Assembly: GCA_017481745.1 (NCBI GenBank)
Contig: JAFUOV010000011.1
Location: 72,629-136,628 of the forward strand
From: Bacteroidaceae bacterium
GTDB lineage: Bacteria > Bacteroidota > Bacteroidia > Bacteroidales > Barnesiellaceae_A
Direction: 5' to 3'
Length of the DNA stretch: 64,000 nucleotides
The position numbers were made by a program, and so were the translations under genes. Position 1 is the first letter of the stretch. Every line of letters starts with the position of its first letter. The notes under the pieces were generated by a model, which saw only the letters and a program-made list of their open reading frames with translations, was not told the origin of the DNA and searched no databases. Below, one piece after another: positions 4,128-20,175 of this stretch.

Positions 4128-4915
4128 TGCGATTGTACGATACCATATTGCATCAACGTAAGCACATATTTATATATGTGTTTGTGATGATATGTATATT
4201 GGTATTCCCTCAATCGGGCTACTCGCAAGAGGTTACCGATGCCGAGCCGGTGAGTGCAGCAGAGACTGAACAGACATCGCTTACCGATGCGCAGTCGAGA
4301 TTGAACAAGACTTTACAGTCTTTAAATCAGCGTGTAGACTCTATGCGCATAGGGGCTATGGTCGATACTACGGTTATAGTAGCCGATACATTGCAATTGC
4401 CACAAAAAAATGAGGCAACATTCAACCCCGACGGAATGCGTGCTGTGTGGTTGTCGGCGCTTTTTCCGGGATTGGGTCAGATTTACAATCGTCGATATTG
4501 GAAGTTACCCATTGTTGTGGGAGGTTTTATGGGGCTTGTGTATGCAACAAGTTGGAACGGACGTATGTATGCCGACTATCAACAAGCATATCTCGACGTG
4601 ATGGACTCGGACCCCGCAACCAATAGCTATATGGATTTCTTCCCACCATATTATACCGAAGATGATATAGATACATCTTGGCTCAAAAATGTGCTCAAGA
4701 CACGCAAAGATGCCTACCGACACTATCGCGACTACTGCATCGTGGGTATGGTGGCATTGTATTTGGTGTGTATCTTAGATGCGTATGTCGATGCCGAGTT
4801 ATATCATTTTGATATGTCGCCCGATTTGACTGTCGATGTCAAGCCGGCTATTATTCCTGTAACATCATCAGTACAACATACGGCACTCGGATTGCAGTGT
4901 GCCATTACCTTTTGA
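4127..4915 (+). CDS. Membrane protein, DUF5683-like (conserved neighbour of parAB in Bacteroidales)
   Basis: Has an N-terminal signal-like segment and the motif LSALFPGLGQIYNRRYWKLPIVVGGF, followed by a second hydrophobic segment. Its start overlaps the parB stop by 1 nt. The family assignment is from memory only. Confidence 0.6.
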   Translation: MRLYDTILHQRKHIFIYVFVMICILVFPQSGYSQEVTDAEPVSAAETEQTSLTDAQSRLNKTLQSLNQRVDSMRIGAMVDTTVIVADTLQLPQKNEATFNPDGMRAVWLSALFPGLGQIYNRRYWKLPIVVGGFMGLVYATSWNGRMYADYQQAYLDVMDSDPATNSYMDFFPPYYTEDDIDTSWLKNVLKTRKDAYRHYRDYCIVGMVALYLVCILDAYVDAELYHFDMSPDLTVDVKPAIIPVTSSVQHTALGLQCAITF

Positions 4916-4920
4916 TTATT

Positions 4921-6381
4921 ATGACTATATTCAGTAAAATTCTTTCATTGACCATAGGTGTTTCGTTGTCGACAATGGCGTTGGCACAAGCGCCGGTCGA
5001 TTCGATTGTAGCACGCGATACAATAACCGATGCAAGATTTGAGTTACCTCAAGAGTATGTCGACAATTTGGAGAAAAATCTTGAAGATTGGTATCTGCTG
5101 AATTATACGGTGTATGAGCCGAAAAAGAGCCGTAAACATCATGATGTAAATTATCCCGACTCGGTATATCGTCAACGATTGTCCGATATGGAAACCATTA
5201 TAGATATGCCCTACAACCAGATTGTGCGTAATTGTATAGACCGATATATGCGCAATGTCAACAATTCGTTGAGTGCTATCTTGGGTCGCAGCACCCGTTT
5301 TATGCCCATCTTCGAGCAGGCTCTCGAAGAGGCTGGTTTGCCGCTTGAGTTGAAATATCTGGCTGTTGTAGAGTCGGCTTTGCGCCCCGATGCAACATCG
5401 CGCGTGGGTGCTGCCGGTTTGTGGCAGTTTATGGCTCCTACCGGTAGAATGTACAACTTGGAAGTGAGCTCGTTGGTTGATGAGCGCCGCGATCCCTACA
5501 AATCGTCGGCTGCAGCAGCGCGTTATCTCAAAGATTTGTACGACATGTTCGACGATTGGCACTTGGCTCTTGCTGCCTACAACTGTGGACCCGGAAAGGT
5601 GGCACGTTGCCTCAGAGCTACGGGAAAGAAAGATTTCTGGGATATATATTATATGTTGCCTTCGGAGACTCGCATGTATGTACCTCTGTTTATTGCCGCC
5701 AACTATGCCATGACCTACTATGGTGAGCACAATATCGAGCCTGTCTTGCCTGTTAAACCTCTCACAGTCGACTCGGTAACGGTGAGCCATCGACTCTATT
5801 TTGAGCATATCTCTAAGGTGATGGATATTCCTATGGAGGCGCTGAAAGAGCTCAACCCGCAATATCGTTGCGATATAATACCCGCCAGCAGCGCCAAGTC
5901 GTATTCGCTTACACTCCCTTCACAACAGGCCTTTGCATTTGTTGTGATGCAAGACTCTATCATAGCTTTTGCCAAGAAAGAGATGGAGGCGCAAGGTATT
6001 ACCGAGGATGATTTTACGTCGGAGCCTACTCCGATATATCACAAAGTGCGTAGTGGCGAGACACTATCGAAGATTGCTCGCAAGTATAACACTACCGTCA
6101 AAAACATTAAAAAGTGGAGTGGTATAAAGAGCGACCGCTTGCGTGTAGGTCAGCGAGTGATTGTAGGTTGGAGTAACGGCTCGTATGTCAACCCCAAATC
6201 TTCTACTACAAAAAGCAAAACCACCAAAGCGCAATCGACACCATCGTATCATAAAGTGCGCAAGGGCGAAACGCTCACAACCATTGCACAACGTTATGGT
6301 ACAACAGTGAAGAAACTGAAAAATGCCAATAATCTGAAGAGCGACCACATCAGCGTTGGACAACGCTTGGTTATTCCTTGA
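4921..6381 (+). CDS. Lytic murein transglycosylase (SLT domain) with two C-terminal LysM domains, MltD-like
   Basis: SLT motifs AVVESALRPDATSRVGAAGLWQFMAPTG and AAYNCGPG. Two LysM repeats: YHKVRSGETLSKIARKYNTTV...VGQRVIV and YHKVRKGETLTTIAQRYGTTV...VGQRLVIP. The start at ATG 4921 yields a signal peptide (MTIFSKILSLTIGVSLSTMALA). Confidence 0.8.
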   Translation: MTIFSKILSLTIGVSLSTMALAQAPVDSIVARDTITDARFELPQEYVDNLEKNLEDWYLLNYTVYEPKKSRKHHDVNYPDSVYRQRLSDMETIIDMPYNQIVRNCIDRYMRNVNNSLSAILGRSTRFMPIFEQALEEAGLPLELKYLAVVESALRPDATSRVGAAGLWQFMAPTGRMYNLEVSSLVDERRDPYKSSAAAARYLKDLYDMFDDWHLALAAYNCGPGKVARCLRATGKKDFWDIYYMLPSETRMYVPLFIAANYAMTYYGEHNIEPVLPVKPLTVDSVTVSHRLYFEHISKVMDIPMEALKELNPQYRCDIIPASSAKSYSLTLPSQQAFAFVVMQDSIIAFAKKEMEAQGITEDDFTSEPTPIYHKVRSGETLSKIARKYNTTVKNIKKWSGIKSDRLRVGQRVIVGWSNGSYVNPKSSTTKSKTTKAQSTPSYHKVRKGETLTTIAQRYGTTVKKLKNANNLKSDHISVGQRLVIP

Positions 6382-11028: not shown

Positions 11029-11622
11029 ATGGATAACAGAATACCCACTGCAACAGAGAGCCTTGAGTTGATAACCCGCATGATAGGGGAGACTCGTAAG
11101 CAAGTAGAGAAATCTTCCCACCGTCCATTCTTGGTGTGGGGTTACACAACGATTGTTGTAACATTGGCTGTGTGGTATGCTTATACGGCTACTCATAGCA
11201 ATGCTATCTTCTGGTTGTGGTTTGCCATACCGGTAGTTGGTTGGCTTGCAATGTGGCTTACGTGCAACAAAGAGAAACAGCAGGGATATGTGCGCACGCC
11301 TATCGACCGAGTGTTGTCGCATATATGGACTGTGTTGGGTGTAGCAGGATTGATTGTTACAATAGCATCGTTTATGCGTCCCATCCCGGTGCTGTTTATT
11401 ATTGTATTGCTTATGGGGTCGGGTAGCACCATATCGGGACTGATTTTGCGGTTGCAAGCCATTACCGTAGCGGGTTGTGCGGGCATAGTCTTTTCGTTGT
11501 TATTCCTGATAGTACAAGGTATTGACCAATGTCTTATCTTTGCAACCATATTCTTGGTGATGATGGTTATACCGGGACACATAATGCAATATCAACAGAG
11601 CAAAAACCAATCTCATGTTTAA
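11029..11622 (+). CDS. Polytopic membrane protein of unknown function
   Basis: 197 aa with about 5 hydrophobic helices. It overlaps the downstream regulator gene by 8 nt. Confidence 0.6.
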   Translation: MDNRIPTATESLELITRMIGETRKQVEKSSHRPFLVWGYTTIVVTLAVWYAYTATHSNAIFWLWFAIPVVGWLAMWLTCNKEKQQGYVRTPIDRVLSHIWTVLGVAGLIVTIASFMRPIPVLFIIVLLMGSGSTISGLILRLQAITVAGCAGIVFSLLFLIVQGIDQCLIFATIFLVMMVIPGHIMQYQQSKNQSHV

Positions 11623-11899
11623 GGCATTAGACCCACTTTTACACTCCGAATTGCGATTGGCTGTCATGTCGCTACTCATAGGCGTGGAGGAAGCCGATTT
11701 TGTCTTTCTTCGCAATAAGACCGGAGCTACAGCCGGCAACTTGAGTGTGCAGATAGACAAGTTGCAACGTGCCGGCTATATATCTATAAGCAAGGGGTTT
11801 AATGGCAAGATGCCGCGCACTACCTGTTGCATTACCGACGAGGGTCGTAGCGCCTTTGCAGCTTATGTAGAAGCCCTGCGCGGATATATCGGTAAATAA
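11615..11899 (+). CDS. Small winged-helix transcriptional regulator
   Basis: 94 aa. LHSELRLAVMSLLIGVEEADFVFLRNKTGATAGNLSVQIDKLQRAGYISISKGF has a wHTH pattern of the ArsR/PadR type. Confidence 0.6.
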   Translation: MFKALDPLLHSELRLAVMSLLIGVEEADFVFLRNKTGATAGNLSVQIDKLQRAGYISISKGFNGKMPRTTCCITDEGRSAFAAYVEALRGYIGK

Positions 11900-11957: not shown

Positions 11958-11965
11958 TACCTTTG
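11958..11965 (+). promoter_or_regulatory. -7 promoter box (TACCTTTG) for the hydrolase/murF-like/ddl operon
   Basis: Matches TAnnTTTG and lies 24 nt upstream of ATG 11989. It overlaps the GTG start used by the ORF track, which argues for the ATG start. Confidence 0.55.
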
Positions 11966-11988
11966 TGTGTCAAACAGAGGATAATAAT

Positions 11989-12765
11989 ATGCCGGCTCAC
12001 ATAACTCTCAAAGGCACGCAGGTGCAATACAAAGTAGGTGGCGAAGGTCGCCCGGTCATCCTATTACATGGATGGGGTTGTAACATTGCCACAATGGCAT
12101 CCATCGAAAATATACTGCTTCCACACTTCAAGGTCTACACACTCGATTTTCCCGGATTTGGCGGTAGCGAAGTCCCCTCGGAGGTGTGGGGTGTTGAGGA
12201 GTATACACGGATGCTCGAACAGTTTGTGTCGGAGTTGCACATCGAGCGCCCCATACTTATAGGGCACTCGTTTGGTGGTCGTGTCTCTATCCTCTACGGC
12301 TCGCGCAACGATGTGCATAAGATAGTTCTTGTTGATGCCGCCGGAGCTAAGCCTCGTCGTCCGCTGAAATACTACGTAAAAGTATATTCTTATAAGTTGT
12401 ATAAGCAATTTTTGTATTGCACCATGGGTCGAGAGCGTGCCGAGGAGAAGTTGGAACAACGCCGTCGCACAGCCGGTTCGGCAGATTATAACGCCTTGAA
12501 CGGTATGATGCGCCGCATCTTTGTAAAGGTGGTTAATGAATACCTTGAGCCGGTAATGCCCCTTATCAAGTGCCCGGTACAACTCATTTGGGGCGCGAAA
12601 GACCAAGATACCAAGTTGCGCGAGGCAAAAGTTATGCTCAAACGCATACCGCAAGCCCGACTGGATGTGATAGCCGATGCCGGACACTACTCGTTCCTCG
12701 ACAATCCGTTCCGTTTTCGCGCTCTGCTCACAGCGTTCTTGAAAGAAGATATTTATGGCAAATAA
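11989..12765 (+). CDS. Alpha/beta-fold hydrolase
   Basis: Oxyanion-region HGWG, the nucleophile elbow GHSFGG, and a C-terminal DAGH (catalytic His context). 258 aa. Confidence 0.75.
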   Translation: MPAHITLKGTQVQYKVGGEGRPVILLHGWGCNIATMASIENILLPHFKVYTLDFPGFGGSEVPSEVWGVEEYTRMLEQFVSELHIERPILIGHSFGGRVSILYGSRNDVHKIVLVDAAGAKPRRPLKYYVKVYSYKLYKQFLYCTMGRERAEEKLEQRRRTAGSADYNALNGMMRRIFVKVVNEYLEPVMPLIKCPVQLIWGAKDQDTKLREAKVMLKRIPQARLDVIADAGHYSFLDNPFRFRALLTAFLKEDIYGK

Positions 12766-12777
12766 AAAGATATAGAG

Positions 12778-14349
12778 ATGATAACAACCATTACACAAAT
12801 AACACTTCTCGTGTCGCTCCTGCTGTATGTAGGTGTGGTACTGAAGTATGAGTTGCAGATGATGCAGCAAAACACCTATCGCAACAATCGCTATTGGAAG
12901 TGGTTTACGAGCAGTGGCACCTCGTCATCGCCTCGTCGCCTCACACTATACTTCTTGTTGCTCATCTCTTGCACACGCTTTACTCCCGAGATTATACATC
13001 CTTTCATTGCACTTGTGTTGGTAATCTTTGCCGTACGCGAGTTGCGTATGAAGTATAAAAAGCCTGTCGTGTTTACCCAACGCGCCACTCGATTATATGT
13101 TGCTTCGTGGGTGGTAGTGTTGCTGTGTGTGGCAGTAACAGCCATAGTGACACAATTAAGCCTACATTGTATGCTGATAACATTGCTTGGTACAGCAGCA
13201 TTCTCTTGGGTGGTTATCATGGTGGCAAACCTCTTGATGCATCCCGTAGAGTTGCAGATAAACAAAAAATTCTATAACGAGGCAAAGAAGATACTTGCCG
13301 AAATGCCACATTTGCGCATTATAGGTGTTACGGGTAGCTATGGCAAGACCAGCACCAAGCATTATTTATATCGCATCCTTTGCGAGAAATATAATGTGAT
13401 AATGACTCCGGGCAGCTTCAACACTCCTATGGGTGTTATACGCACAGTGCGCGAAATGATGAAGCCTTATCACGAAATCTTCATCGTGGAGATGGGTGCC
13501 AAGCAGTTGGGTGATATCAAAGAGATATGCGACCTTGTTTGTCCCACTATTGGTATAGTAACAGCTGTCGGCGAGCAACACTTAGAGTCGTTCAAGTCGA
13601 TAGAGAATGTGCAACGTACTAAGTTTGAACTTATAGATGCCTTGCCCGCCGATGGATTGGGTGTTGTAAACAACGACTTTGAATACATTGCCAATCGCGA
13701 GGTGAAGAATGTTGCCGTAAAACGCTACTCGCTCAATGCCGGCGTAGATTACCATATAGAAGATATTGAATATGGCGAGGTGGAAACGCGCTTTACCGTA
13801 GTAGGCGACGGGCACCGCATAGAGCTTGCCACCAAGCTCGTGGGTGAATGTAACTTGTCGAACCTTATGGCTGCGGTTATCGTAGCACTTTATTTGGATG
13901 TGCCCGAGAAGTCCATCAAATATGGCGTGAGCCAGATAGAACAGGTAGAGCACCGATTGAATATGAAACGTACCCCCGGTGGGTTGTCGATTATCGACGA
14001 TGCCTTCAATTCAAACCCCGACGGTGCACGCATGGCTTTAGACGTACTTGCCCGCATCAAAACAGGCAAGCGCATCGTTATTACTCCCGGTATGATAGAG
14101 CTCGGCGACAAGCAGGTAGAATACAACCAACGCTTTGGTCGTCAGATGGCAGAGGCAGCCGACTATGTAATGGTAGTGGGTAGTTACAACCGCGATGCTA
14201 TCTTGGCAGGACTTGCCGAGGGCGAAATGCCCGAAGAGAACATCTTCTTGGCAGATAGCTTCTTGATAGCACAAGCCCGACTGGTACAAATAGCCCGCGC
14301 CGGCGATGTGGTATTGTACGAAAACGACCTCCCCGATACCTTCAAGTAA
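12778..14349 (+). CDS. Mur ligase family protein, MurF-like (D-Ala-D-Ala-adding type), with an N-terminal polytopic membrane domain
   Basis: Residues 1-165 contain about 5 hydrophobic helices. These are followed by the P-loop IIGVTGSYGKTSTK, then DAFNSNP and PGMIELG (compare the MurF motifs DAYNANP and GDMxELG). Confidence 0.7.
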   Translation: MITTITQITLLVSLLLYVGVVLKYELQMMQQNTYRNNRYWKWFTSSGTSSSPRRLTLYFLLLISCTRFTPEIIHPFIALVLVIFAVRELRMKYKKPVVFTQRATRLYVASWVVVLLCVAVTAIVTQLSLHCMLITLLGTAAFSWVVIMVANLLMHPVELQINKKFYNEAKKILAEMPHLRIIGVTGSYGKTSTKHYLYRILCEKYNVIMTPGSFNTPMGVIRTVREMMKPYHEIFIVEMGAKQLGDIKEICDLVCPTIGIVTAVGEQHLESFKSIENVQRTKFELIDALPADGLGVVNNDFEYIANREVKNVAVKRYSLNAGVDYHIEDIEYGEVETRFTVVGDGHRIELATKLVGECNLSNLMAAVIVALYLDVPEKSIKYGVSQIEQVEHRLNMKRTPGGLSIIDDAFNSNPDGARMALDVLARIKTGKRIVITPGMIELGDKQVEYNQRFGRQMAEAADYVMVVGSYNRDAILAGLAEGEMPEENIFLADSFLIAQARLVQIARAGDVVLYENDLPDTFK

Positions 14350-14396
14350 TAGCGGGTCGGAGGCAAACAACAGCAAACAACAAAAACAAAATAAGG

Positions 14397-15590
14397 ATGA
14401 AAACAACAGTAGGTGTATTTTTTGGAGGACGCTCGGTAGAACATGAAATATCGGTACTCACTGCGCTCCAAGCTATGTATGCATTTGACAGTACAAAATA
14501 CGACATTGTACCCATTTATATCTCGAAAGAGGGTCGTTGGTATAGTGGCGAGGCACTGATGTCGGTGTCCAATTTCAAAGATATGAATGCCCTCAAGGCA
14601 CAATGCGAAGAGGTGTATATGAACCCCGAATTTGGCGATTACAACCTCTATCGTCGCAAAAAGAAACTCTTCGGTTCGCCTATTGTTACAACACTCGATG
14701 TTGTTGTTCCTGCACTGCACGGAACAAATGGTGAGGACGGCGTATTTCAAGGTCTTTTAGAGACCATCGGTATACCCTTTGCCGGCTGTAACACACTCTC
14801 GGCAGCCATTGGAATGGATAAAATTGTCATGAAAATGGTCTTGGAACATTGCAATATACCCATTGTCGACTATGTGTGGTTTACCGACAAACAATGGTTT
14901 GCCGATCGCGACCGTTGGGCAGACGAGGTAGAACAGCAGATAGGCTACCCTGTAATTGTGAAACCTGCCAACTTGGGCTCAAGTGTAGGTATTTCTCGTG
15001 CCGACAATCGTGCCGAGTTGATAACAAAGGTAGACGAGGCAAGCCGCTATTCGACACGTTTGGTTATCGAAGACCTTGTTGAAAATCTCAAAGAAATCAA
15101 CTGCTCGGTATTGGGCGACTGCGACGATTATATGGCTTCGGTGTGCGAAGAGCCTATCAAGAGCGGTAAAATACTCTCATACGAAGACAAGTATATGGGT
15201 GGTAGCCAAGGCGAGAGCGGTATGCAAGCAAGCGAAAAGCGTATTCCTGCCGACTTGACCCCCGAGCAAACTGCTCGTGTGCAATTCTTGGCAGGCGAAA
15301 CATTCCGTGTTTTGTCGTGTCATGGTGTAGCTCGTGTCGACGTGATGATTGACGACAATACCGGCGATATATATGTCAACGAAATCAATGCCATCCCCGG
15401 CTCTCTGTCGTTCTATCTGTGGGAAGCTACTAAAGTGCCCTTCGATGAGTTGATGGACCGTTTGGTGAAACTTGCCCTCAAACGCAAGCGTGAGGCTGCA
15501 AACAAGACGGTAAGCTATTCGCAAAACATCTTTGCCCTCGGTGGTGGTGTCAAAGGTACAAAAGGCGCTAAAGGTGCCAAGATGAAGTAG
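14397..15590 (+). CDS. ddl: D-alanine--D-alanine ligase, long (DdlA/Firmicute-like) form
   Basis: N-terminus VGVFFGGRSVEHEISVLTALQAM. The ATP-grasp core has GYPVIVKPANLGSSVGIS and the C-terminal motif EINAIPG. At 397 aa it is longer than typical Ddl, and it carries a Gly/Lys-rich tail (GGGVKGTKGAKGAKMK). Confidence 0.8.
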   Translation: MKTTVGVFFGGRSVEHEISVLTALQAMYAFDSTKYDIVPIYISKEGRWYSGEALMSVSNFKDMNALKAQCEEVYMNPEFGDYNLYRRKKKLFGSPIVTTLDVVVPALHGTNGEDGVFQGLLETIGIPFAGCNTLSAAIGMDKIVMKMVLEHCNIPIVDYVWFTDKQWFADRDRWADEVEQQIGYPVIVKPANLGSSVGISRADNRAELITKVDEASRYSTRLVIEDLVENLKEINCSVLGDCDDYMASVCEEPIKSGKILSYEDKYMGGSQGESGMQASEKRIPADLTPEQTARVQFLAGETFRVLSCHGVARVDVMIDDNTGDIYVNEINAIPGSLSFYLWEATKVPFDELMDRLVKLALKRKREAANKTVSYSQNIFALGGGVKGTKGAKGAKMK

Positions 15591-15634
15591 CGACATTTGT
15601 TGAGTATCTACTCTACAAGATTTCAATATATAGA

Positions 15635-15676
15635 CAGCCCCAATATTTCGATGTGAAAATTGGGGCTGCTTTTTTA
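15635..15676. terminator. Hairpin terminator between convergent ddl and gadB
   Basis: Stem CAGCCCCAAT/ATTGGGGCTG followed by CTTTTTTA on the + strand. Confidence 0.7.
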
Positions 15677-15712: not shown

Positions 15713-17158
15713 CTATTTCTTCTTCCTATGGCAGCCGGTGTGCGTGAAGATAGAGCCGTGCACCTTCTCGTTGCGGTCGTGAGCGATGCGCGAGGGGGTG
15801 GGATATTCGAGTTTCTCGAGCTCGGCAATGGCTGCGCGCATATCGTCGAGTAGCATATCTGCCATATCGCGGCTGAAGCCTTGTCGCACGACAATGCGCA
15901 TCACTACGCTATCCTCTATATTCTTGGGCATAGTGTATGCAGGTACCATCCATCCACTCTGTTTCAGCTTGTCTTGTAGGTCGTAGAGTGTCCACTCGGC
16001 AGCCTTGGCATATTCGGGACGCATGTACCAGATGAAGAGTGGGTTGACAACATCCTTGCAGTAGTTGGCAAATTGCGGCATTTTGCCTATCTCGTCGTGC
16101 AGGTATCGGGCTATCTCCATAGAGTTGTGCTGTACTTGCTTGTACCCCTCAAATCCGAGGCGGATAAATTGGTAGTACTGACCCAATATCTGAGCTGCGG
16201 GACGTGAGAAGTTAAGACCCACTTGTGTAATGTCGGCACCCAGATAGTTGACCGAGAACGACATCTTGCCCGGCAGATACTTCTTGTCTTTCCATACGAC
16301 CCAGCCAAGACCGGGATATACCAATCCGTATTTGTGTCCCGAGGTGCTGATAGATAACACCCACTTGAGACGGAAGTCCCAACGTTTCTCGGGGTAGAGG
16401 AAGGGCAATATAAAGCCACCCGAGGCGGCATCGACATGGATGGGTATATCATGCCCCGTGCGCGCATTATATGCATCCAATGCTGCATCAAGAGCCTCAA
16501 CGTCATCGTTGAGTCCCGTCCATGTAACACCTTGTATAGGTACAACACAGATTGTATTTTCGTCGCACATGTCTATAACCGCTTGAGGGTCGAGTGTTGT
16601 CTTCTCGAGTGTGAGAGGTACGGTGCGCATCTCGATTTGCCACAGGTCGGCAAACTTTTCCCACACCACTTGGTAGCCGGTAGAGATGATAAAGTTGGGC
16701 TTGTCGGTGGGCTTGCCTTGAGCCTCGCGACGCTCTTTCCAACGCAGCCATGCAGCAACACCTCCCAGCATGCAAGCCTCGGACGAACCTATTGCCAATG
16801 CGCCGGTTTTCCATTTTGATTGTTCGGGCGAGTTCCACAAGTTTGCCATGATATTGATACACTTGGCACTCATCACAGCCACGCGAGGATACTCAGTTTC
16901 GTCAATATAGTTGATGCTGATAGCCTCGTTCATAAGTCGTGTGGCAAAGGGGTCCATGTACGTAGTAACAAACGTAGCGAGGTTGAGGCGGGGTTGAGTT
17001 TGAGCAAAAGTCTCGTCTTTGACCATTTGGTAGGCAATTTCGGGACGGGTTCCGTGCTGAGGTATTACGTCGGTAGGAGCGGGTTGTAACATCTCTTCCG
17101 AGCCAAATACAGCTGTATTGTCGTGCTCGTTTCTGTAATCAGATTTTTCCATAATCAT
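15713..17158 (-). CDS. gadB: Glutamate decarboxylase (PLP-dependent)
   Basis: 481 aa. Contains SISTSGHKYGLVYPGLGWVVW (PLP-lysine context) and IHVDAASGGF. Collinear GAD-type similarity runs from the N-terminus. Confidence 0.9.
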   Translation of the reverse strand: MIMEKSDYRNEHDNTAVFGSEEMLQPAPTDVIPQHGTRPEIAYQMVKDETFAQTQPRLNLATFVTTYMDPFATRLMNEAISINYIDETEYPRVAVMSAKCINIMANLWNSPEQSKWKTGALAIGSSEACMLGGVAAWLRWKERREAQGKPTDKPNFIISTGYQVVWEKFADLWQIEMRTVPLTLEKTTLDPQAVIDMCDENTICVVPIQGVTWTGLNDDVEALDAALDAYNARTGHDIPIHVDAASGGFILPFLYPEKRWDFRLKWVLSISTSGHKYGLVYPGLGWVVWKDKKYLPGKMSFSVNYLGADITQVGLNFSRPAAQILGQYYQFIRLGFEGYKQVQHNSMEIARYLHDEIGKMPQFANYCKDVVNPLFIWYMRPEYAKAAEWTLYDLQDKLKQSGWMVPAYTMPKNIEDSVVMRIVVRQGFSRDMADMLLDDMRAAIAELEKLEYPTPSRIAHDRNEKVHGSIFTHTGCHRKKK

Positions 17159-17274
17159 AAGGATTGTTTTATAAATAATAAGGTACGAAAAGTCAACAAA
17201 AGATAGGCGGTAAAGGTTGGCTGTGGTACGCTATATTAGCGAATTTTGCATTTATTGAACATTTGGGCACAATA

Positions 17275-18564
17275 CTAAAAGTTGTATTGTATCATGGCGT
17301 TGATGCGGTGTGCATCGCCTGCAACGTCGTTGTAGTTGCGACGATTTCCGTAGAGGTATTCTATTCCTATCTGACAGTTGTTGAAAGGCGAATAGAAGGC
17401 GTTGGCAACAACATATTGTCCGTTGCGATAGGCGGTGGCTGCCAGCGATGGCTTGTCGAATAGGCGGCATTGGCTATATGCTGCCGAAACAAACAATCGG
17501 GGTATAATAGTGTATTGTATTCCTCCTACCACTCCCATGGCGTATGGTGCTATCATGCTGCCGTTGTGCTCGCCCGGGATGAGGTCGAAGCCATTACCGC
17601 CCAAGTCGTTGAGGTATGTAGTGTACCCACGCCCATATGAACCCTGAAAGTAGAATGTAATGTGCGACGATGCTTTGATAACACCACTCAACTGCGTAGC
17701 CCAACCGATGACAAACTTGTTCTTGTCGGCGACCAAATTGCGATATGATAGTGCTCGGAAGAGGTTTGACAATCGTATATGACTACTGCCTTCGTTCCAT
17801 TCATATTGCACATACGACGGTACGTCGGGGATGCGCTGGTTGATATAACTATTGTATTGCCTGTCGGTTGTGTAGGTGGCTGTAGCTGCCTCTACTGCCA
17901 TTGCCATGCTCCAATGATTGCCCAAGGGCTGCACATACTGCAACATCGTATTCATTGAAATGGTAACGCCCGAAGGTCCTTGAAAGTCGATTGTTGGCGG
18001 AATGGCTGCCACATCGGTAAATGTACTCCAAGCTCTACCAATGCGCAGTCGCCACAACTGAATGTATGCCTTGCGCAGTCGCATACCGTAGTATCCTGCT
18101 GCTGTTCCACGAAAATCGCCCTCTATATAGACCGAGAAATCGCCGATGGCAGTGTTTCGCCCTACCAATTTAAAGAAAATGCGCGAGGTTGAGGCATCCA
18201 TTTGGAATTGGCTGCGCATGTCGGGCTGCTCGGGTGTGGGTATATTATAGGTTACAAAATCGGGGCTGTTGGAGATGCCGTCCATATCGACCGACATTGT
18301 ACCCTTGACATAGCCACCAATACCCAGCGCTACACGCCCTTTGCGGTCGAGGAAGAGGAAACGTGGTGCGCGTGGATCTTGAAAGTGCAATCCGTTTGCC
18401 TCGTACATCGCCTTCATAACCTCGTAAGAGTTGTTTTTTACCTCTTCATTCTCATTGCTTACAACTACTGCTGTGGGCGTAAAGATAGAGTCTACAACGG
18501 CTGCCATAGCCGTTGTGCAACCTACCACTGCCAACGTTGCAGCGATTAAAATAGTTTTTTTCAT
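17275..18564 (-). CDS. Outer-membrane beta-barrel porin (DcaP-like)
   Basis: Signal or lipoprotein-type N-terminus MKKTILIAATLAVVGCTTAMA. It has an alternating amphipathic strand pattern and an aromatic C-terminal residue (...INAMIQYNF). The motif RKAYIQLWRLRIGRAWSTFTD...IDFQGPSG resembles DcaP-type porins. Confidence 0.6.
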   Translation of the reverse strand: MKKTILIAATLAVVGCTTAMAAVVDSIFTPTAVVVSNENEEVKNNSYEVMKAMYEANGLHFQDPRAPRFLFLDRKGRVALGIGGYVKGTMSVDMDGISNSPDFVTYNIPTPEQPDMRSQFQMDASTSRIFFKLVGRNTAIGDFSVYIEGDFRGTAAGYYGMRLRKAYIQLWRLRIGRAWSTFTDVAAIPPTIDFQGPSGVTISMNTMLQYVQPLGNHWSMAMAVEAATATYTTDRQYNSYINQRIPDVPSYVQYEWNEGSSHIRLSNLFRALSYRNLVADKNKFVIGWATQLSGVIKASSHITFYFQGSYGRGYTTYLNDLGGNGFDLIPGEHNGSMIAPYAMGVVGGIQYTIIPRLFVSAAYSQCRLFDKPSLAATAYRNGQYVVANAFYSPFNNCQIGIEYLYGNRRNYNDVAGDAHRINAMIQYNF

Positions 18565-18672
18565 ACAAGTCGTTTTTGGTTTTATGCAAGAACAATACAG
18601 CTTGTACTAAAGTTTACAGCAAACCTTCGCGACGGCGTGGTTGTTATAGCCTACGAACCAAAAAATAGTATT

Positions 18673-20175
18673 ATGGCAAATATTGGTAAAACAACCAAAC
18701 TGAGCGTTGCAACGCTCGCTATTATGAATGTAACGGCGGTAGTGTCGTTGCGCGGACTGCCCGCCGAGGCAGAATATGGTATTAGTTCGGCATTCTACTA
18801 TCTGTTTGCTGCATTGGTATTTCTCATCCCGACGGCTTTGGTGGCAGCCGAGTTGGCAGCTATGTTTTCCGACAAGCAGGGCGGTGTATTTCGTTGGGTA
18901 GGAGAGGCTTTCGGTAAGCGCATGGGCTTCTTGGCGATATGGCTACAATGGGTAGAGAGTACAATATGGTATCCTACGGTGCTCACTTTTGGTGCTGTTT
19001 CGTTGGCGTTTATCGGCATGGATAGTACCCATGATATGACATTGGCATCCAATCGTATGTATACCCTTGCCGTCGTACTCATTATCTATTGGCTTGCCAC
19101 GTTTATTTCGCTCAAAGGTATGTCGTGGGTAGGACGAGTATCGAAGATTGGCGGTCTGGTAGGTACTATCATTCCGGCGGGATTGTTGGTGGTTTTGGCA
19201 ATTATATATCTTGCTACCGGCGGTGTGTCGCAAATGGATTTTGGTGGTAGTTTCTTCCCCGACCTCACCAATTTCAACAATCTTGTCTTGGCAGCTGGTA
19301 TATTTTTGTTCTATGCCGGTATGGAGATGGGTGGTATACACGTGAAAGAGGTAGATAATCCTTCGCGCAACTATCCCAAAGCAGTATTTATAGGCTCACT
19401 TATTACGGTGCTGATTTTTGTGTTGGGAACGTTTGCTTTGGGTATAATCATCCCGAAGAGCGATATAAACCTTACGCAGAGTTTGTTGGTGGGTTTTGAC
19501 CGCTACTTTGCCTACGTCAAGGCTTCGTGGCTCTCGCCTATTATTGCCGTAGCTCTCGCATTTGGTGTGTTGGCAGGAGTGCTCACATGGGTAGCAGGTC
19601 CTTCAAAAGGTATCTTTGCCGTAGGTCGTGCCGGCTATCTGCCTCCATTTTTTCAGAAAACCAATAGCCGCGGTGTGCAACGCAATATATTGCTTATACA
19701 GGGCGCTATCGTAACGCTGTTGGGGTTGCTGTTTGTTGTAATGCCCTCGGTGCAAAGTTTCTATCAGATACTCTCGCAGCTTACGGTGTTGTTGTACCTT
19801 ATCATGTATCTCATGATGTTTGCTGCAGCTATCTACTTACGATACAATATGAAGAAAGCCAATCGCCCCTTCCGCATCGGCAATAAAGGCAACGGTATGA
19901 TGTGGTTTGTGGCAGGAGTAGGTTTCTTGGGCTCTCTCTTGGCGTTTATACTCAGCTTTATTCCGCCCGGACAGATTGCAGTGGGTAGTAGTGCTGTGTG
20001 GTATGCGGTGCTGGTGATAGGTTGTATTGTAGTAGTTGCTGTGCCTATTATTATATATGCTCTGCGCAAACCCTCGTGGCGCGACCCTTCGGCTACATTT
20101 GAGCCGTTCCATTGGGAAGAGAATACCACCCCGGCGACCGACAAAAATGAGAGCGCATCGGGTGAACATTCATAA
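18673..20175 (+). CDS. gadC: Glutamate:gamma-aminobutyrate antiporter (APC superfamily)
   Basis: MANIGKTTKLSVATLAIMNVTAVVSLRGLPAEAEYG..., about 12 TM helices and a C-terminal soluble plug-like tail. It is adjacent to gadB. The start is taken at ATG 18673. Confidence 0.8.
   Translation: MANIGKTTKLSVATLAIMNVTAVVSLRGLPAEAEYGISSAFYYLFAALVFLIPTALVAAELAAMFSDKQGGVFRWVGEAFGKRMGFLAIWLQWVESTIWYPTVLTFGAVSLAFIGMDSTHDMTLASNRMYTLAVVLIIYWLATFISLKGMSWVGRVSKIGGLVGTIIPAGLLVVLAIIYLATGGVSQMDFGGSFFPDLTNFNNLVLAAGIFLFYAGMEMGGIHVKEVDNPSRNYPKAVFIGSLITVLIFVLGTFALGIIIPKSDINLTQSLLVGFDRYFAYVKASWLSPIIAVALAFGVLAGVLTWVAGPSKGIFAVGRAGYLPPFFQKTNSRGVQRNILLIQGAIVTLLGLLFVVMPSVQSFYQILSQLTVLLYLIMYLMMFAAAIYLRYNMKKANRPFRIGNKGNGMMWFVAGVGFLGSLLAFILSFIPPGQIAVGSSAVWYAVLVIGCIVVVAVPIIIYALRKPSWRDPSATFEPFHWEENTTPATDKNESASGEHS

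Follow-up and report, generated by a model that had tools for sequence, protein, structure and literature searches.

A membrane-anchored MurF-type ligase between an alpha/beta hydrolase and a Ddl in a Bacteroidales genome: a probable housekeeping branch of peptidoglycan precursor synthesis

Background

The MurF of Helicobacter pylori, an essential enzyme of peptidoglycan precursor synthesis, is described as an inner-membrane protein (PMC9448923, PMC9507126), and a passage of PMC9448923 that cites Blair 2018 gives it four N-terminal transmembrane (TM) domains. The gene, HP0740, is 1485 bp long and encodes 494 amino acids (PMC6501431). In Campylobacter jejuni a gene cluster contains murF (Cj0795c), an alpha/beta hydrolase gene (Cj0796c) and ddl (Cj0798c); deletion of Cj0796c failed, and the hydrolase is possibly essential (PMC5530802). 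Both cj0795c and cj0798c are included in the gene list of an essential-gene section (PMC3229698). On membrane-anchored MurF in general, our literature search returned nothing beyond the H. pylori work. Here we describe a gene trio encoding an alpha/beta-fold hydrolase, a membrane-anchored MurF-type ligase and a D-alanine--D-alanine ligase (Ddl) within 64,000 nucleotides of a Bacteroidaceae bacterium (GenBank assembly GCA_017481745.1, contig JAFUOV010000011.1, positions 72,629 to 136,628 of the forward strand), hereafter called the window. Three successive GenBank entries (MBQ8565204-206), which belong to a Bacteroidales metagenome-assembled genome (MAG) from the ruminant gut, match the three proteins exactly, and close homologues of these proteins are labeled Muribaculaceae or Bacteroidales. 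The trio is probably the organism's housekeeping D-alanyl-D-alanine (D-Ala-D-Ala) branch of peptidoglycan precursor synthesis, in a form in which MurF is anchored in the membrane.

Like the window ligase, the H. pylori MurF has multi-pass TM helices at its N-terminus ahead of the catalytic domains, a likeness drawn from its published description. Its 494 amino acids fall within the size range of the short forms found in the present study (476-503 amino acids), and its four TM helices compare with five in the window ligase and three in those short forms. The C. jejuni cluster is similar by gene content, with an alpha/beta-fold hydrolase beside murF and ddl nearby, but its gene order differs from that of the module, since ddl lies upstream. 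Moreover, the Ddl of H. pylori does not belong to the long-loop, basic-tail subfamily described below. Given the H. pylori and C. jejuni literature, housekeeping MurF enzymes that are embedded in the membrane and accompanied by a hydrolase are an existing kind, though a barely characterized one.

Results and discussion

Gene order and peptidoglycan context

Among related genome loci, the hydrolase gene preceded the gene for the membrane MurF in 58/58, and ddl was immediately downstream in 42/58. By these counts no partner of the membrane MurF is as constant as the hydrolase, and linkage to Ddl is facultative. A set of 80 metagenome loci, with G+C contents (GC) of 24-69%, included 53 with room on both sides of the ligase gene; 43 of these had the full trio, seven the hydrolase only, one the Ddl only, and two neither. 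The hydrolase-ligase-Ddl order was also present in Longicatena (Erysipelotrichaceae) and a Bacillales MAG, in a termite-gut MAG labeled 'Alphaproteobacteria', in a Clostridia MAG and low-GC Bacilli MAGs, and in Anaerolineae, the isolate Aggregatilinea lenta included. Among 72,556 plasmids searched by tblastn, not one record covered the membrane domain. A plasmid-borne or mobile module was rejected as a candidate, there being no full-length membrane form on any of these plasmids.

On contig L138 the gene order is mraZ, rsmH, ftsL, ftsI, murE, hydrolase, membrane MurF, Ddl and mraY. Since the trio sits between murE and mraY, the membrane MurF fills the canonical murF slot of the division and cell wall (dcw) cluster, and no other murF was seen in the L138 dcw cluster. 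Both murE and mraY exceed their equivalog cutoffs, the mraY scoring as an ordinary pentapeptide transferase, and the L138 membrane MurF is 38% identical to the window ligase over its full length, with the N-terminal motifs present. In Anaerolineae, murA lies directly 5' of the trio: the L140 murA scored above the NF006873 cutoff, and the corresponding gene on contig L149 is 70% identical to it. In the Clostridia MAG this position is taken by murI (TIGR00067, 221.6 bits against a cutoff of 146.65), and further loci, among them low-GC Bacilli MAG contigs, have glmM, murI or mraY-ftsW near the trio. In a Bacilli MAG the trio precedes cshA (DEAD-box helicase), ydcA (rhomboid), acpS, ydcC, alr and mazEF, a position that we take to be the site of ddl-murF on the Bacillus subtilis map. 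In the window itself, the only peptidoglycan gene adjoining MurF is ddl, and the remaining flanks have no relation to the cell wall. The neighborhoods examined contained neither a pgsC/pgsA nor a gatD partner. For the family, the context in other lineages is decisive and points to core peptidoglycan synthesis.

Contig L138 has some features of its own. An LppC/LpoA-like gene (PF04348; L138:9893-11116) rather than murD follows mraY, and the FtsI encoded on the contig resembles proteobacterial FtsI/PenA; the source is probably a low-GC proteobacterium whose dcw cluster has been rearranged. In a Muribaculaceae MAG, an insert on the opposite strand (L015:2673-4429) that encodes a DUF4276 protein and an AAA_21 (AbiEii/OLD-like) ATPase separates the membrane murF from ddl and looks like a defense island splitting the operon. 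In Aggregatilinea lenta a gene for a 257-amino-acid Peptidase_C39-like protein (a weak match) directly follows ddl on the same strand (L149:12879-13652) and may be an additional, lineage-specific operon member.

The MurF-type ligase

The ligase of the window is 523 amino acids long (12778..14349, + strand) and is annotated as MurF in GenBank (MBQ8565205.1). Of the Mur ligase domains, Pfam recognized the middle and the C-terminal one and no other (PF08245, 144.2 bits; PF02875, 49.6 bits; both above cutoff); these cover residues 184-513, and the catalytic core composed of the central ATP-binding and C-terminal domains is encoded at 13303..14349 (+). The MurF motifs named in a preliminary description of this locus were found again, with the P-loop motif GVTGSYGKTSTK at residues 183-194 (13324-13359, +), DAFNSNP at residues 408-414 (13999-14019, +) and PGMIELG at residues 437-443 (14086-14106, +).

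Compared with models of the Mur paralogues, the ligase scored far higher with the murF model TIGR01143 (242.0 bits) than with those of MurE (74-92 bits), MurD (79 bits) or MurC (62 bits). This is below the TIGR01143 cutoff of 288.6. The alignment begins only at position 66 of the 418 positions of the profile, which indicates that MurF domain 1 is absent, and the missing domain explains the shortfall in score. With MurF structures in the PDB, the alignment likewise starts near residue 96 of the chain. By sequence, the best matches in the PDB were all MurF (2am1, 1gg4; E about 1e-32), as were the best matches to the predicted fold by Foldseek (4qf5, 3zl8; E about 1e-25 over roughly 360 columns). 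With the canonical enzymes of Escherichia coli (1GG4), Streptococcus pneumoniae (2AM1) and Acinetobacter baumannii (4QF5) the ligase shares the central and C-terminal domains, the P-loop, the Mg-binding Glu and His, motifs of the DxxNxNP and GxMxELG types and, on L138, linkage to ddl, murE and mraY. It differs from them in its own motif variants (GxTGSYGKTS, DDAFNSNP and TPGMIELG) and in having a membrane domain of ~175 residues where they have the TDSR-bearing soluble domain 1. Judged from the sequence, the catalytic core is clearly of the MurF type and the soluble domain 1 is gone.

Other enzymes, namely PgsB/CapB, MurT and cyanophycin synthetase, resemble the window ligase in having a Mur ligase core without the canonical UDP-binding domain, and PgsB is membrane-associated. 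However, their similarity to the ligase is very weak, their partner genes are different, and the genomic context of the module is core peptidoglycan synthesis. The NCBIfam MurT model gave 27.6 bits against a cutoff of 800 and the cyanophycin synthetase models 34-37 bits against cutoffs of 850-877; no PgsB-type model was among the 25 best NCBIfam matches, and cyanophycin synthetase was among the distant fold matches. On these scores and on genomic context, PgsB-, cyanophycin- or MurT-like chemistry was ruled out.

Residues 1-175 of the ligase (12778..13302, +) form an N-terminal polytopic membrane domain in place of MurF domain 1. Hydropathy and an AlphaFold2 model agree on this point, as the preliminary description had proposed when it counted about five hydrophobic helices instead of the usual soluble domain. 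Helices in the model span residues 2-31, 36-45, 52-65, 73-90, 101-124, 129-141 and 143-174, with predicted local distance difference test (pLDDT) values of 94-98, and they make up five membrane helices and one short amphipathic helix. The membrane region as modeled has a pLDDT of 96, and the models reach 94-96. The last membrane helix (143-174) continues directly into the P-loop domain. From the distribution of Lys and Arg and the positive-inside rule, the cytoplasmic parts would be the catalytic domains and the loops at residues 25-51 and 88-105, and the N-terminus would lie outside. The isolated membrane domain gave no match in Pfam, and its best match to PDB folds had an E value of 2.3, with TM-scores of at most 0.34.

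Scanning 1.84 billion representatives of 50%-identity clusters, we found 4,411 representatives homologous to the ligase at E < 1e-30. Nearly all of the best 150 of these are 475-570 amino acids long and align from about query residue 5-25, so the ATG at 12778 is taken to be the true start. In all, the membrane domain is conserved in more than 150 full-length representatives. Three motifs stand out in the membrane domain. Motif 1, LQMMQQNTYRNNRYWKW (consensus LHMLQQNSYxNxRYxxW; 12853..12903, +), follows TM1 in a loop predicted to be cytoplasmic, and its Q30 and Y34 are invariant across phyla. Motif 2, the basic juxtamembrane segment KYKKPVVFTQRATRL (consensus KKPLVxTxRxKRL; 13051..13095, +), precedes TM4; T100 and R102 are invariant, K94 and R105 are kept, and its TxRxxR core was present in 123/123 distinct family members. 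Motif 3, HPVELQIN (PxExxIN; 13240..13263, +), lies at the exit of the last membrane helix and contains the invariant P156 together with E158, which was invariant in two alignments (A1, A4). Q30, Y34, T100, R102 and P156 were invariant in alignments covering 33-92% identity; the overall identity of the membrane domain is only about 29-36%, yet these residues are unchanged. The short forms of 476-503 amino acids have one helical hairpin fewer, and thus three TM helices, with the conserved motifs kept.

All of the conserved polar motifs are predicted to lie on the cytoplasmic face beside the catalytic domain. The full-length homologues, the invariant residues and the confident models all indicate a genuine membrane domain maintained by selection, which replaces domain 1 and is more than a tether. 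The 'membrane tether' of the preliminary description is correct as to membrane attachment and too narrow, given the invariant polar residues in a domain that replaces domain 1. An artefact of a wrong start codon, which that description had considered, was ruled out by the homologue alignments, by the gap of 12 nt after the upstream stop codon and by the invariant residues themselves.

The Ddl and the alpha/beta hydrolase

The third gene of the trio (14397..15590, +; GenBank MBQ8565206.1) encodes a DdlA-type D-alanine--D-alanine ligase of 397 amino acids that belongs to a module-specific subfamily. It passed the curated models NF002528 (321.8 bits, cutoff 262) and TIGR01205 (271 bits, cutoff 245.65). 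Its scores with Van models were all far under cutoff (VanG, 227 vs 495; VanA, 170 vs 775), and a Van-type ligase was ruled out on that basis. The best PDB match was the Ddl of Staphylococcus aureus (E 7e-60), and the full-length ATP-grasp architecture is shared with S. aureus-type DdlA (2I80) and NF002528.

There are three differences from 2I80. The omega-loop MGGSQGESGMQASEKR (residues 267-282; 15195..15242, +) is 8 residues longer, four residues are deleted at PGSLSFYLWE, and the C-terminus carries a 25-residue extension, SYSQNIF...GGGVKGTKGAKGAKMK (15513..15587, +), in which an aromatic-x-S/T-N-I/L-F motif is followed by a basic Gly/Lys tail. The insertion and the Gly/Lys tail had already been pointed out in this 397-residue protein, and the comparison with the S. 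aureus enzyme bears them out. The long omega-loop is common to the trio-linked Ddls of Muribaculaceae, the Bacillales MAG and Longicatena, and its pattern was found in 58/104 distinct module Ddls; the PGSLSFYLW segment was matched in 64/104. The extension is kept in module Ddls, the C-terminal motif being present in 87/104 and a G/K/R-rich tail in 79/104, and both the long loop and the basic tail occur in module-linked Ddls from several phyla.

The first gene (11989..12765, +) encodes an EstV-like alpha/beta-fold serine hydrolase of 258 amino acids (GenBank MBQ8565204.1, 'alpha/beta hydrolase'), which matches Pfam Abhydrolase_1 and Abhydrolase_6 and appears to be cytoplasmic, no signal peptide being seen. 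Its best NCBIfam match was NF058580, the EstV family lipase, at 115 bits. EstV was also the best match of five further module hydrolases, from Erysipelotrichaceae, Bacilli, Muribaculaceae and the proteobacterial-looking contig, at 131-154 bits. Since these scores of 115-154 bits stay below the equivalog cutoff of 300, the module hydrolase is a relative and not a member of the EstV family, with which it shares the alpha/beta fold and an intact Ser-Asp-His triad. EstV of H. pylori, after which the family is named and from which its model derives, is presumably HP0739, encoded between ddlA and murF. The triad, Ser94 (in GHSFGG), Asp205 and His233, was invariant in 124/124 distinct module hydrolases. 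In the HGWG oxyanion motif, H27 was kept in 118/124 of them, G28 in 124/124, W29 in 123/124 and G30 in 122/124. Because the triad is invariant and HGWG is conserved, the hydrolase is predicted to be catalytically competent. The 'trimming or editing' role once proposed for it is pure speculation.

Interpretation of the locus

The preliminary description had left two alternatives, the housekeeping pair of Ddl and MurF, tethered to the membrane in an unusual way, and a dedicated system that adds a D-Ala-D-Ala-like dipeptide to a membrane-associated acceptor. The housekeeping alternative is favored by the dcw slot on L138, the operons with murA or murI, the Bacilli locus and the Campylobacterota literature; the dedicated system found no such support. 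In the likely housekeeping pathway, Ddl would condense two D-alanines, as expected from its family membership, and the five-helix N-domain would hold the MurF catalytic domains at the cytoplasmic face. There the ligase, to judge from its MurF motifs and genomic context, would add the dipeptide to the MurNAc-tripeptide precursor near MraY. The invariant polar and basic loops of the membrane domain probably help to bind substrate or a partner, the EstV-like hydrolase, predicted to be competent, would be an obligate genetic partner of the ligase, and, more speculatively, the basic Gly/Lys tail may dock Ddl to the membrane or to the ligase.

Several observations weigh against the housekeeping interpretation. 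In 16/58 related loci Ddl is not adjacent, and unrelated genes are found downstream instead. The ligase falls short of the curated murF cutoff (242.0 vs 288.6), and the housekeeping model leaves unexplained how UDP-N-acetylmuramoyl (UDP-MurNAc)-tripeptide would be bound without domain 1 and gives no account of the function of the hydrolase. The window Ddl matches that of H. pylori (2pvp) distantly, at 113 bits, which leaves room for the Campylobacterota cluster to be in part an analogue. Phocaeicola massiliensis, of the related family Bacteroidaceae, has a canonical soluble MurF of 431 amino acids with the TDSR motif, 32% identical to the catalytic core of the window ligase and with no hydrolase adjacent; Muribaculaceae have therefore either replaced a canonical murF or added the module to it. 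No canonical murF of the same lineage was found in about 1 Mb of loci examined. Finally, two distant members of the family (L107:5881-7638 and L127:5992-7674) have neither hydrolase nor ddl adjacent. Both lie on metagenome contigs of >1.2 Mb (GC 38% and 43%, respectively), and their motif 1 is divergent (VHVYQQVGYKHNEYWSW). Pfam identified a nucleotide triphosphate (NTP)-transferase, an FtsX-like permease and glgB among the L127 neighbors, which the ORFs (open reading frames) of L107 match in size and order only. These two members may represent a separate subfamily.

The presence of canonical MurF in Bacteroidaceae relatives would also suit a paralogous, dedicated system, in which a canonical soluble MurF (and Ddl) serves bulk peptidoglycan and the horizontally spread module serves another acceptor or other conditions, for example stress or antibiotic tolerance, attaching either D-Ala-D-Ala or a variant dipeptide that the divergent Ddl would produce. 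Compatible with horizontal spread is the occurrence of the module in many unrelated gut lineages at a cross-phylum identity of 35-56%; the flanking genes vary in Muribaculaceae, and the Ddl is altered in the omega-loop and the PGSLSFYLW segment, near the second-substrate site. We nevertheless consider such a system unlikely. A dcw cluster with no other murF has the trio in its murF slot, and elsewhere the trio is co-operonic with murA or murI, lies close to mraY-ftsW on low-GC Bacilli MAG contigs and was on none of the plasmids searched; the Ddl passes the D-Ala-D-Ala cutoffs and fails those for Van. H. pylori presumably has the membrane form as its sole MurF. That protein is described as essential and located in the inner membrane (PMC9448923, PMC9507126).

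Two further readings assume another acceptor. If the membrane domain and its basic juxtamembrane motif bound a lipid-linked substrate, the ligase might act on undecaprenyl-pyrophosphate-MurNAc-tripeptide, that is, on lipid I or lipid II lacking D-Ala-D-Ala, as the main route or in repair. Domain 1 is indeed absent, the predicted position of both the invariant KKPLVxTxRxKRL segment and the QxxxY loop is the cytoplasmic surface of the membrane, and a precedent exists in MurT, a Mur-ligase-like protein without the N-terminal domain that acts on lipid II (named a lipid II isoglutaminyl synthase subunit in NCBIfam). Nothing points directly to a lipid-linked acceptor, the similarity to MurT is negligible, the L138 MraY scores as an ordinary pentapeptide transferase, and the standard pathway is the one usually assumed for H. 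pylori, whose MurF is of the membrane type (PMC9507126); we regard this reading as improbable. Synthesis of a non-peptidoglycan amide polymer or modification on a membrane acceptor, after the manner of PgsB or cyanophycin synthetase, is hardly credible. PgsB-type enzymes do provide a precedent as membrane-anchored relatives of Mur ligases, and cyanophycin synthetase appeared among the distant fold matches, but the cyanophycin synthetase scores are a small fraction of their cutoffs and the PgsB-type model and pgsC/pgsA are missing from the best matches and neighborhoods given above. Moreover, the ATP-grasp enzyme is a genuine Ddl, and the context of dcw genes, murA and murI in effect refutes this reading.

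The housekeeping interpretation can be extended, more tentatively. The membrane domain and the hydrolase might be working parts of a distinct, membrane-located last cytoplasmic step of precursor synthesis, in which the N-domain would bind the precursor, MraY or the lipid carrier, the hydrolase would process or proofread, and Ddl would dock by its tail; we consider this possible, though doubtful. If it were true, thousands of 50%-identity clusters in several phyla would use an uncharacterized machine of three enzymes in place of the soluble MurF of the textbooks. If the housekeeping interpretation alone is true, Muribaculaceae use a membrane-anchored MurF format that had been noticed in H. pylori, and the idea of a special system is corrected. 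The format is in either case widespread, the 4,411 representatives including Bacteroidales, Bacillota and Chloroflexota. The family is of note for the loss of the UDP-binding domain, for a conserved membrane domain without structural relative and for its pairing with a predicted active serine hydrolase, with which the ligase is nearly always coupled in translation. MurF is an antibiotic target, and inhibitors and assays developed with the soluble three-domain MurF may not transfer to the membrane form. The hydrolase, possibly essential in C. jejuni, would be a candidate for a new target.

Transcription signals and flanking genes

The three ORFs of the window are on the + strand (11989-12765, 12778-14349 and 14397-15590), with gaps of 12 nt between hydrolase and ligase and 47 nt between ligase and ddl, in agreement with the three-gene operon and spacing of the preliminary description; the first ORF has an alternative GTG start at 11965. 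The promoter and terminator proposed there fared differently. A promoter-like -7 box, TACCTTTG (11958..11965, +), is located 24 nt 5' of the ATG inside an intergenic gap of 89 nt and does fit the Bacteroidetes TAnnTTTG type. That motif by itself is weak evidence, as the window contains 62 matches to it where 46.5 would be expected. Since this enrichment is modest, a promoter role for TACCTTTG has positional plausibility only; the position is suggestive, and proof there is none. The terminator at 15635..15676 (+) is well supported as an intrinsic-terminator-like hairpin (-20.4 kcal/mol, z = -4.95) followed by T6. The hairpin lies 45 nt past the ddl stop codon and just ahead of a convergent gene ending at 15713. 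A consensus terminator scanner did not report the 15635-15676 hairpin, because its apparent loop is large.

The trio is flanked in the window by genes for a choloylglycine-hydrolase-like protein, a helix-turn-helix (HTH) regulator, a glutamate decarboxylase, a porin and a permease. Directly 5' of the trio (11029-11899), a gene for a 197-amino-acid multi-pass membrane protein overlaps by 8 nt that of a 94-amino-acid winged-helix HTH_34 regulator. As this pair is next to the trio in only 2/58 related loci, it is probably unrelated to it. Downstream, the glutamate decarboxylase gene (15713-17158, -), which follows the trio in five close relatives too, is succeeded by genes for a DcaP/porin-like outer-membrane protein (17275-18564, -) and an amino-acid permease (18637-20175, +). 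Together the genes from 15713 to 20175 look like a glutamate decarboxylase (GAD)-type acid-resistance cluster. About 5.6 kb upstream of the trio, a gene at 4897-6381 encodes another cell-wall enzyme, a lytic transglycosylase that combines an SLT domain and LysM repeats; its linkage to the trio is not conserved.

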